A model generated the notes under the pieces. The model did not search any database. It was given only the letters and a program-made list of their open reading frames with translations, and was not told the DNA's origin. From the NCBI RefSeq assembly GCF_057098645.1, contig NZ_CM169472.1: a stretch of DNA of 64,000 nt; one strand, 5' to 3'. This document shows positions 23,580 through 24,234 of this stretch, one piece after another. Made by a program: the position numbers and the translations under genes. Position 1 is the stretch's first letter, and each line of letters opens with the position of its first letter.

Positions 23580-23911
23580 TCATGAGTCTTTTGAATGACG
23601 TTCAGAAATTCATTGAAGCCCATCCGGGGTGTACTTCCGGAGACATTGCGGATGCTTTTGCAGGTTACTCACGGCAGCGCGTACTGCAGTCAGCAAGCAA
23701 GTTACGTCAGAGTGGGCGTGTGGCTCACCGTTGTGAAGGGGATACACGCAGACATTTCCCGCGCCTGACTGAGAGAGCGCAGGAGCCGGAACCACAACCA
23801 GTTCGTGAAACCAGACCTGTGCGCAATTTCTATGTCGGCACTAACGATTCCCGGGTGATTTTGTGCCTGACTCGCCAGGCGGAAAAACTGGTCAGGGAGA
23901 TGGCGGCATGA
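23576..23911 (+). CDS. Hypothetical phage protein
   Basis: 111-aa ORF coupled between the replication gene and the LexA-like gene. Confidence 0.4.
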   Translation: MIMSLLNDVQKFIEAHPGCTSGDIADAFAGYSRQRVLQSASKLRQSGRVAHRCEGDTRRHFPRLTERAQEPEPQPVRETRPVRNFYVGTNDSRVILCLTRQAEKLVREMAA

Positions 23912-24234
23912 CGACGTTAACTCAATGCCAGCAGCAGGTGCTGGATATGCTGATTTCTTACCAGAAAGAACGTGGCTTCCCGCCAACCAATCAGGAGGTG
24001 GCAACCATGCTGGGATACCGTTCAGTGAATGCAGCGGTGGAGCATCTTCGCGCACTGGAGAAAAAAGGCGTCATCACGATAAAGCGTGGCGTGGCCCGGG
24101 GGATCACGCTTCATACCGCAGTGAAGGACGACGACAGCGAAGCGGTCGGTATCATCCGCGCACTGCTTGCCGGTGAGGAGAACGCCAGGCTGCGTGCAGC
24201 CCACTGGTTACATGAGAGGGGCCTGAAAGTATGA
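23908..24234 (+). CDS. LexA N-terminal DNA-binding-domain-only protein (no S24 peptidase domain)
   Basis: [68 protein letters not shown] closely parallels the LexA N-domain; the protein ends after ~108 aa. Confidence 0.7.
   Translation: [108 protein letters not shown]

Follow-up and report, generated by a model that had tools for sequence, protein, structure and literature searches.

The 64,000-nucleotide window analysed here (NCBI RefSeq assembly GCF_057098645.1, contig NZ_CM169472.1) contains a prophage, one gene of which encodes a 108-residue protein made up of a LexA-type DNA-binding domain (DBD), a linker and a helical hairpin. We propose that this LexA-DBD protein may be a functional, RecA-insensitive surrogate of LexA that re-represses SOS-box promoters; we put this forward tentatively, with confidence a little short of even. 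The gene, its ribosome-binding signal and the parts of its product lie at the following positions, where ORF denotes open reading frame, aa amino acids and AF2 AlphaFold2.

23908-24234, + strand: LexA-DBD-only gene, 108 aa, an intact ORF with ATG at 23908 and TGA at 24232-24234.
23894-23899, + strand: Shine-Dalgarno AGGGAG, 8 nt 5' of the LexA-DBD ATG, read from the sequence.
23908-24111, + strand: residues 1-68, LexA-type winged helix-turn-helix (phmmer, alignment, AF2 model, Foldseek).
24112-24129, + strand: residues 69-74, flexible linker, modelled with low confidence (predicted local distance difference test, pLDDT, below 50 at residues 71-74).
24130-24216, + strand: residues 75-103, two-helix hairpin (H75-88 and H93-103; alignment, AF2 model).

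The only Pfam domain in the protein was LexA_DNA_bind (PF01726; residues 1-65 against positions 1-65 of the 65-position model, E 3.8e-19), and the best match in a phmmer search of all PDB chains was the E. coli LexA N-terminal domain (1lea, E 6.5e-16, residues 2-70). An AF2 model was built from an 18-sequence family alignment that takes in the E. coli LexA N-terminal domain (pLDDT 84.8). Comparison with LexA by alignment and structure prediction had been suggested in the initial annotation, and the modelled winged helix overlaid the LexA-DNA crystal structure 3jso_B with a root-mean-square deviation of 1.0 Å over 68 residues at 50% identity (Foldseek). The protein had also been described there as aligning with the LexA N-terminal domain along its length. 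This holds for residues 1-68, on the evidence of PF01726, 1lea and 3jso_B, but not for the linker at 69-74, the length of which differs across the family alignment, nor for the hairpin at 75-103, which is absent from LexA.

A further statement, that the S24 autocleavage domain is missing, was borne out. The protein scored 70.5 bits against the NCBIfam lexA equivalog (TIGR00498), below the cut-off of 110.95, and the match covered only profile positions 1-91 of 203, hence no S24 domain. No Pfam or NCBIfam match to a Peptidase_S24 domain with its Ser/Lys dyad was obtained, and the protein stops at residue 108. Beyond its DNA-binding domain the protein thus does not qualify as LexA proper, whether by score cut-off, by S24 domain or by cleavage site. 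In the phmmer alignment, A88-G89-E90 (24169-24177, in RALLAGE) stands opposite A84-G85-E86 of LexA (GRVAAGE), which holds the Ala84-Gly85 cleavage site. We rejected this tripeptide as a remnant cleavage site; since it is replaced in relatives by A-N, V-G, E-R, T-R and others and falls at a predicted helix end and turn, it is probably a vestige of an ancestral lexA. With no S24 domain and no conserved cleavage site, the protein appears to offer RecA* nothing to act on.

Most of the residues with which LexA reads bases are present. E. coli LexA makes its base contacts in helix 3 through S39, N41, A42, E44 and E45 (PMC3091678), and the window protein keeps four of these five residues (S39, N41, A42 and E45), with valine in place of E44 and also of P40. 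Its recognition helix reads R38-S-V-N-A-A-V-E-H-L47 and its wing holds R64-G65. Invariant positions in the 18-sequence alignment include S39, K53, R64, G65 and I66, with N41 nearly so, and Edwardsiella-type members (L098-L100) retain all five LexA contact residues.

The operons of diverged family members bear on a possible role in SOS control. Loci of these members were collected by single-protein queries and scanned for LexA boxes. At 34 of 35 loci, from five sublineages, a LexA box with 14 or more of the 20 consensus positions was present within 1.6 kb upstream, at 0.4-1.5 kb from the DBD-only gene; downstream, the same 35 loci had no LexA box within 1.6 kb. Three other sublineages (15 loci) had no such upstream box. 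In the Edwardsiella type (EPP-1, L094-L100) the box lies in the spacer of a CTGAAA-17-TACAAT promoter and is followed by the gene for an Ant antirepressor (PHROG 63, E 1.1e-31), the stop of which overlaps the start of the 69-71-aa DBD-only gene, and then by DUF968/HNH and Q. In the Klebsiella type (for example L114) a terminator precedes a TTGACC-17-TACTGT promoter with the box TACTGTTTATTTATACAGTA, after which come dinI (PHROG 189), PHROG 1813, the DBD-plus-hairpin gene, PHROG 1212 and DUF968. The order in L013 is terminator, box, PHROG 1813, DBD-plus-hairpin gene, RusA, DUF968 and Q, and L103 likewise has PHROG 1813 after the box, with the DBD-plus-hairpin gene next. These upstream boxes, together with the operons shared with ant or dinI, suggest that in several independent lineages the DBD-only gene belongs to an SOS-derepressed operon alongside known SOS and induction modulators. 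The initial annotation had linked the protein to SOS, antirepressor and DinI control. This proposal is partly supported: the link gains independent backing from other lineages, in which a homologous DBD-only gene is co-operonic with Ant or dinI behind a LexA-box promoter. As far as we found in the literature, this link between the family and LexA-box-driven ant or dinI operons has not been reported.

In three lineages PHROG 1813, a small conserved protein (75-101 aa), was always encoded just ahead of the DBD-plus-hairpin gene, after the LexA-box promoter or after dinI. PHROG 1813 genes were located as follows.

L114, 3589-3894: PHROG 1813 gene.
L103, 3713-3961: PHROG 1813 gene.
L013, 5724-5951: PHROG 1813 gene.
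L003, 246-536: PHROG 1813 gene.

A 'split LexA' arrangement, in which PHROG 1813 would be a relic of the S24 barrel, was unsupported: the family had no PDB match at E <= 10 and no Pfam match, and hhalign returned a probability of only 4% for a match to the C-terminal domain of LexA.

The window prophage runs from the integrase gene (12853..14091), which adjoins yjjG, to the dinI-like gene (55217..55462, - strand), which adjoins attR and prfC, and it has a complete terminase, portal, capsid and tail gene set. The LexA-DBD gene occupies its nin region, in the order CII-like, regulator, replication protein (22761..23579), 111-aa fusion ORF, LexA-DBD gene, RusA, KilA-N protein, DUF968/HNH and Q. 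Three features define its regulatory setting.

20142-20816, - strand: CI-type prophage repressor with an S24 (UmuD-like) domain, ymfK-type (annotation and profile match).
24231-24620, + strand: RusA Holliday-junction resolvase, translationally coupled 3' of the LexA-DBD gene.
26460-27212, + strand: Q-like antiterminator, at the end of the nin operon holding the LexA-DBD gene.

The start of the gene shares ATGA with the stop of the upstream ORF, and its TGA overlaps the rusA ATG at 24231. With overlapping start and stop codons at both of its ends, the gene is therefore one cistron of a tightly packed rightward operon. A longer alternative ORF would begin at GTG 23863, a start that is absent from the gene models of the homologues and of RefSeq. 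A promoter-like site was sought upstream of the gene and none was found. Because the CI-type repressor carries an S24/UmuD-like domain, the phage is predicted to be SOS-inducible by CI cleavage, with its nin operon under CI control, and we infer that the LexA-DBD gene is delayed-early, expressed once CI has been inactivated.

A surrogate of this kind could work as follows. The protein would be made after the S24-type CI has been cleaved, that is, when host LexA is also destroyed, because its gene is translationally coupled in the CI-repressed early-right (nin) operon. Its hairpin, placed after a linker of similar length, might stand in for the LexA C-terminal domain in dimerisation, and the dimer would seat two DBDs on the CTGT-N8-ACAG palindrome. 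It could then re-occupy SOS boxes at the phage's own dinI-like promoter, at host SOS genes and at LexA-controlled antirepressors of co-resident prophages, and would close the SOS regulon irreversibly as far as RecA* is concerned. In related phages that have a LexA box with ant or dinI, the result would be an SOS-triggered, RecA-insensitive negative feedback loop. Two established findings are in keeping with this: the N-terminal domain that cleavage releases from LexA goes on binding SOS boxes and repressing, so that its removal by ClpXP is needed for full induction (PMC10584840), and with gp7 the phage GIL01 manipulates the LexA regulon and outcompetes a co-resident prophage (PMC9700832).

The candidate targets within the window were located by consensus scan.

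55478-55493, unstranded: LexA box 1 (CACTGTGTTTGTATACAGTA with flanks), dinI-like promoter, candidate target.
55506-55521, unstranded: LexA box 2 (AACTGTATGAATAAACAGTG with flanks), dinI-like promoter, candidate target.
55217-55462, - strand: DinI-like gene, 82 aa (PHROG 189, E 5.5e-31), just 3' of both boxes.
28506-28521, unstranded: near-consensus LexA box (TACTGTAAAAATAAACAGTG with flanks), possible target, in codons 4-9 of the late-operon methyltransferase gene.

The first two boxes, just upstream of the DinI-like gene, are those that the initial annotation had reported on the prophage's dinI-like promoter, and they were confirmed. Three boxes in the window have at least 14 of 20 consensus positions, whereas shuffles gave an expectation of 0.15. 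In the window phage, SfV and mEp460, N8 (CTGT-N8-ACAG) was the only enriched palindrome spacing, and no phage-specific palindrome enriched beyond CTGT-N8-ACAG was seen in these three phages. The third box lies in an N6/N4 DNA methyltransferase gene of the late operon (28496..29548) and is conserved in SfV, mEp460, phiNP, L013 and about 36 of 80 IMG/VR loci; in Kp4866-6 it is partly lost through an amino-acid change. As a possible private target of the LexA-DBD protein this box was uninformative, being present in phiNP, partly lost in Kp4866-6 and part of a coding sequence that is highly conserved anyway.

Two more sites, 21802-21817 and 1621-1636, match CTGT-N8-ACAG exactly but have poor flanks and spacers, with no more than 12 of the 20 consensus positions. 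The former, also conserved in SfV and mEp460, falls inside the regulator ORF 21699..22535, some 100 nt from its start, and the latter is in host sequence; each is probably a weak site or a chance match. Separately, mEp460-type immunity regions contain a LexA box matching 18 of 20 positions (TACTGTTTTTACATACAGTA and variants) within the coding sequence of their S24 CI-type repressor, about 160-230 nt from the start codon. It was found in mEp460 (L006, 31972-31991), L011 (838-857), phiNP (L010, 1110-1129) and 29 of the 80 loci L014-L093. Such a position suggests either a roadblock or a promoter under LexA control that is internal or antisense. The ymfK-type repressor gene of the window does not have the mEp460-type internal box.

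The protein belongs to a family that is already catalogued, as PHROG 362 ('transcriptional repressor'; residues 1-108 against profile positions 1-106 of 106, E 1.6e-59), as SfV Orf42 and as RefSeq entry WP_000210154.1 ('LexA family transcriptional regulator'); neither this nor the conserved hairpin had been noticed in the initial annotation. It is 96-100% identical (96-99% by tblastn) to proteins of SfV, SfII, SfIV, cdtI, mEp460 and Stx2a and Stx2c phages, nearly always encoded between dam and rusA, and the nin position between replication or methylase genes and RusA-DUF968-Q is shared by the window, SfV, mEp460, mEp390, L011, L012 and L013. Megablast found the gene in 2232 of 5426 complete E. 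coli genomes (41%), in up to 4 copies per genome and at 95-100% DNA identity. An exhaustive HMMER search of 1.84 billion cluster representatives retrieved diverged relatives, among them proteins alike in length and architecture and 42-53% identical (P0123, P0126, P0127, P0131, P0137, P0160, P0172, P0191 and P0230). In comparisons with the SfV and mEp460 genes, the ratio of nonsynonymous to synonymous polymorphism (pN/pS) was 0.12-0.32, and the gene is real and under purifying selection. The initial annotation had allowed for a truncated pseudogene of a full-length repressor. That reading is ruled out by the end-to-end PHROG 362 match, the relatives of unchanged architecture, the wide distribution and the pN/pS values.

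It is likewise very improbable that a captured lexA, or a full-length repressor, is decaying here and that the gene is its functionless remnant. The adjacent ORF is indeed a deletion product, and many fragmentary or fused copies of the family are present in databases. Against this, length and architecture are kept down to 42% identity under the selection just described, the Shine-Dalgarno sequence is intact and translational coupling is present, and the gene is carried by the functional phages SfV, mEp460, cdtI and Stx2 as well as by the large share of E. coli genomes given above.

The C-terminal part differs between phages. Edwardsiella phages have a bare LexA DBD of 69-71 aa with no C-terminal module (EPP-1). 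At the same nin position, between DNA methylase and RusA, Klebsiella phage Kp4866-6 (L009, 1281-1784) and L139-L146 encode proteins of 157-167 aa in which the DBD is followed by some 90 aa of an unrelated C-terminal domain. As bare, hairpin and 90-aa-domain forms are found at the same nin position, the LexA DBD appears to be combined with interchangeable C-terminal modules. Matches to the fold in BFVD showed that LexA-DBD-only proteins of 65-150 aa are widespread in phages generally. We also observed proteins of about 160 aa with tandem LexA DBDs and no S24 domain, in effect single-chain 'dimers' (P0157, P0161, P0164, P0133, P0134, P0148, P0151 and P0152).

Several observations weigh against the surrogate reading, and they are best considered with the explanations that compete with it. 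The upstream boxes of the diverged relatives have no counterpart at the E. coli-type gene: none of 80 loci had a LexA box within 2.7 kb upstream, and in the window no LexA box lies upstream of the gene, which is part of the CI-controlled early-right operon. Phage phiNP has both the methyltransferase-gene box and the repressor-gene box and gave no tblastn match to the LexA-DBD protein; those boxes therefore do not require it. Our literature search found no study testing binding, expression or function of the PHROG 362/SfV Orf42 family, and the 'transcriptional repressor' name of PHROG 362 is an annotation for which no experimental test was found in the literature.

The recognition helix raises a more specific objection. 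In hairpin-bearing relatives position 44 is never acidic, and some members (P0086, P0172 and the Klebsiella-type P0191) have G, L or I in place of E45. Positions 41-45 read NAAVE, NTIAG, NAVLL, NTVFI or NAATD according to sublineage, E45 being lost in the hairpin-bearing sublineages with NTIAG, NAVLL and NTVFI. Given the loss of an acidic residue at position 44 and this variation in helix 3, operator specificity is probably LexA-like in the window's sublineage and not uniform across the family. Variants without E45 lie behind the same canonical LexA box as relatives that have it, so that these boxes are in the first place sites for host LexA and need not be the target of the DBD-only protein.

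Such a pattern would fit a phage-specific transcription factor that has drifted from SOS-box specificity and represses or activates phage genes through operators of its own, an explanation that we consider less likely but the main rival of the surrogate. It has a model in GIL01 gp6, the one phage LexA truncation that has been characterised, a LexA-DBD-only protein that binds GaCACAnnTGTGaC and not the host LexA box and activates a late promoter, which also tells against the surrogate. Variation of helix positions between sublineages is typical of regulators that co-evolve with private operators, and the loss of E44 in hairpin-bearing members is systematic. One possibility within this explanation is a controller of the DNA methyltransferases to which the gene is usually coupled. 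In SfV, mEp460, L011 and L012 the gene comes directly after an orphan Dam or C5 DNA methyltransferase gene, often overlapping it, in L013, L103 and Kp4866-6 a methylase is also found shortly upstream, and a palindromic box is present at the 5' end of the late methyltransferase gene. However, the window has no dam and its LexA-DBD gene is intact, and mEp390 and EPP-1 have no upstream methyltransferase. Moreover, lambdoid phages have Q for late genes and Cro for early shut-off, leaving no evident regulatory gap. The contact residues of LexA are unchanged at four of five positions in the window's sublineage and at all five in the Edwardsiella type, and the sole enriched palindrome is the SOS-type CTGT-N8-ACAG.

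The hairpin presents the remaining difficulty. Its A97 and L101 are conserved in all hairpin-bearing homologues, and it is presumed to be an oligomerisation or partner-binding module. A linker-fused pseudo-dimer ((GGGGS)6, paired alignment of 17 sequences) gave a predicted template modelling score (pTM) of 0.35 and a lower pLDDT in AF2; homodimerisation through the hairpin was thus not confidently predicted, a point against the surrogate. A search with the hairpin alone (42-aa profile) retrieved only fragments of the same family and no other protein context, and the hairpin was dropped as a lead to an independent module.

A conserved hairpin with no confident homodimer prediction could instead mean that the protein acts mainly by protein-protein contact with a phage or host partner, its DNA binding being secondary or lost. 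The alternative C-terminal modules at the locus (none in EPP-1, the roughly 90-aa unrelated one in Kp4866-6 and L139-L146) and the fixed small partner gene PHROG 1813 immediately upstream in three lineages are in its favour. We regard it as improbable: conservation in the family is strongest at S39, N41, K53 and R64, which are DNA-contact and wing residues, and the hairpin was found in no other protein context. LexA engages RecA* via its C-terminal domain. This domain is absent from the LexA-DBD protein (8trg was among the PDB matches), which therefore cannot be a RecA* decoy.

Some neighbouring features concern the history of the locus. Immediately upstream of the LexA-DBD gene the window has undergone a deletion relative to SfV.

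23576-23911, + strand: 111-aa fusion ORF, the N-terminal part of a PerC-like activator (SfV orf40) joined to the last dam codons (PHROG 23071 and 1324, BLASTN against SfV).
23876-23891, + strand: deletion junction with 16 bp of microhomology (BLASTN against SfV).

Compared with SfV, 796 bp are missing (SfV 29436-30231), a stretch that takes in almost the whole of dam and the 3' end of orf40, and this loss puts the LexA-DBD gene directly after the fusion ORF. RefSeq labels the fusion ORF a pseudogene; it is so frequent that a separate PHROG, 23071, exists for it. The 2.8 kb around the LexA-DBD gene are 100% identical to a prophage of E. coli EC27 (L001), and the rest of the prophage differs. 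Identification of the window prophage with the defective EC27 prophage was rejected, the identity being limited to the 2.8-kb query and the full structural gene set being present. Adjoining the integrase, a 535-aa ORF (14244-15851, - strand) with a dCMP-deaminase-like domain matches PHROG 9198 over its whole length. EC27 carries the defence gene dsr1 at the same prophage position, and the site therefore looks like a cargo or defence hot spot. The LexA-DBD gene itself was rejected as a defence-system member, its PADLOC match (winged helix-turn-helix, E 3.6e-4) being only marginal.

If the LexA-DBD protein does bind SOS boxes, a common prophage gene would give phages direct, RecA-independent control of the host DNA-damage regulon. 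Its carriers include Stx2-converting and Shigella serotype-converting phages. A surrogate would then matter for the threshold of prophage induction and, through it, for the release of Shiga toxin; it would also matter for the rivalry of prophages that share a host and, in clinical isolates, for antibiotic tolerance and SOS-dependent mutagenesis. In its widest form the proposal is that a LexA surrogate which RecA cannot inactivate, and which re-closes SOS, is carried by prophages in about 40% of E. coli genomes and by relatives in Klebsiella, Citrobacter, Salmonella and Edwardsiella; this form we consider doubtful. If true, the surrogate would set induction thresholds and silence host SOS toxins as well as those antirepressors of rival prophages that LexA controls, and natural isolates would differ systematically from K-12 in their SOS dynamics. 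Should the protein instead use a private operator, it would be one more accessory nin-region regulator of limited interest. The link to SOS operons in relatives makes the anti-SOS hypothesis directly testable.

Among known systems, the closest likeness is to LexA itself. The LexA N-terminal domain (1LEA, 3JSO) shares the winged-helix fold at about 50% identity, with S39, N41, A42 and E45 and the wing R64-G65 in common. The LexA-DBD protein differs from LexA in E44V and P40V, in lacking the S24 dimerisation and catalytic domain and a conserved Ala-Gly site, and in its extra hairpin and nin-region location. It also resembles LexA(1-84), the post-cleavage fragment, which is likewise without S24 and keeps residual SOS-box binding and repression. 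The two differ at the C-terminus, which is -GLKV in the LexA-DBD protein and -VAA in LexA(1-84), the latter end presumably being the one recognised by ClpX.

Other mobile-element proteins hold down the SOS regulon by different means. GIL01 gp7, which retains LexA on DNA and suppresses a co-resident prophage (PMC9700832), and the anti-SOS factors DinI and PsiB act on LexA or RecA by protein-protein contact, whereas the LexA-DBD protein would occupy the operator itself. In the case of DinI the two kinds of factor meet, since dinI is co-operonic with the DBD-only gene in Klebsiella-type phages.

GIL01 gp6, from a Bacillus tectivirus, is also a phage LexA DBD without a cleavage domain, encoded by an early gene of an SOS-inducible temperate phage. 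Unlike the LexA-DBD protein it has 66 aa and no C-terminal module, and it binds a non-SOS palindrome and activates late promoter P3. In the window, where late genes are Q-dependent, no gp6-like private palindrome was identified at a late-promoter -35. BLASTP gave no alignment between the two proteins at E <= 100, and one comes from a Gram-positive tectivirus and the other from an enterobacterial lambdoid phage; they were probably acquired independently, as analogues and not relatives. With PHROG 362, SfV Orf42 and WP_000210154 there is no difference, the LexA-DBD protein being a member of that family. To judge from its sequence, it takes its place among phage-encoded LexA truncations, from which it is distinguished by a conserved predicted hairpin and a retained SOS-type recognition helix.

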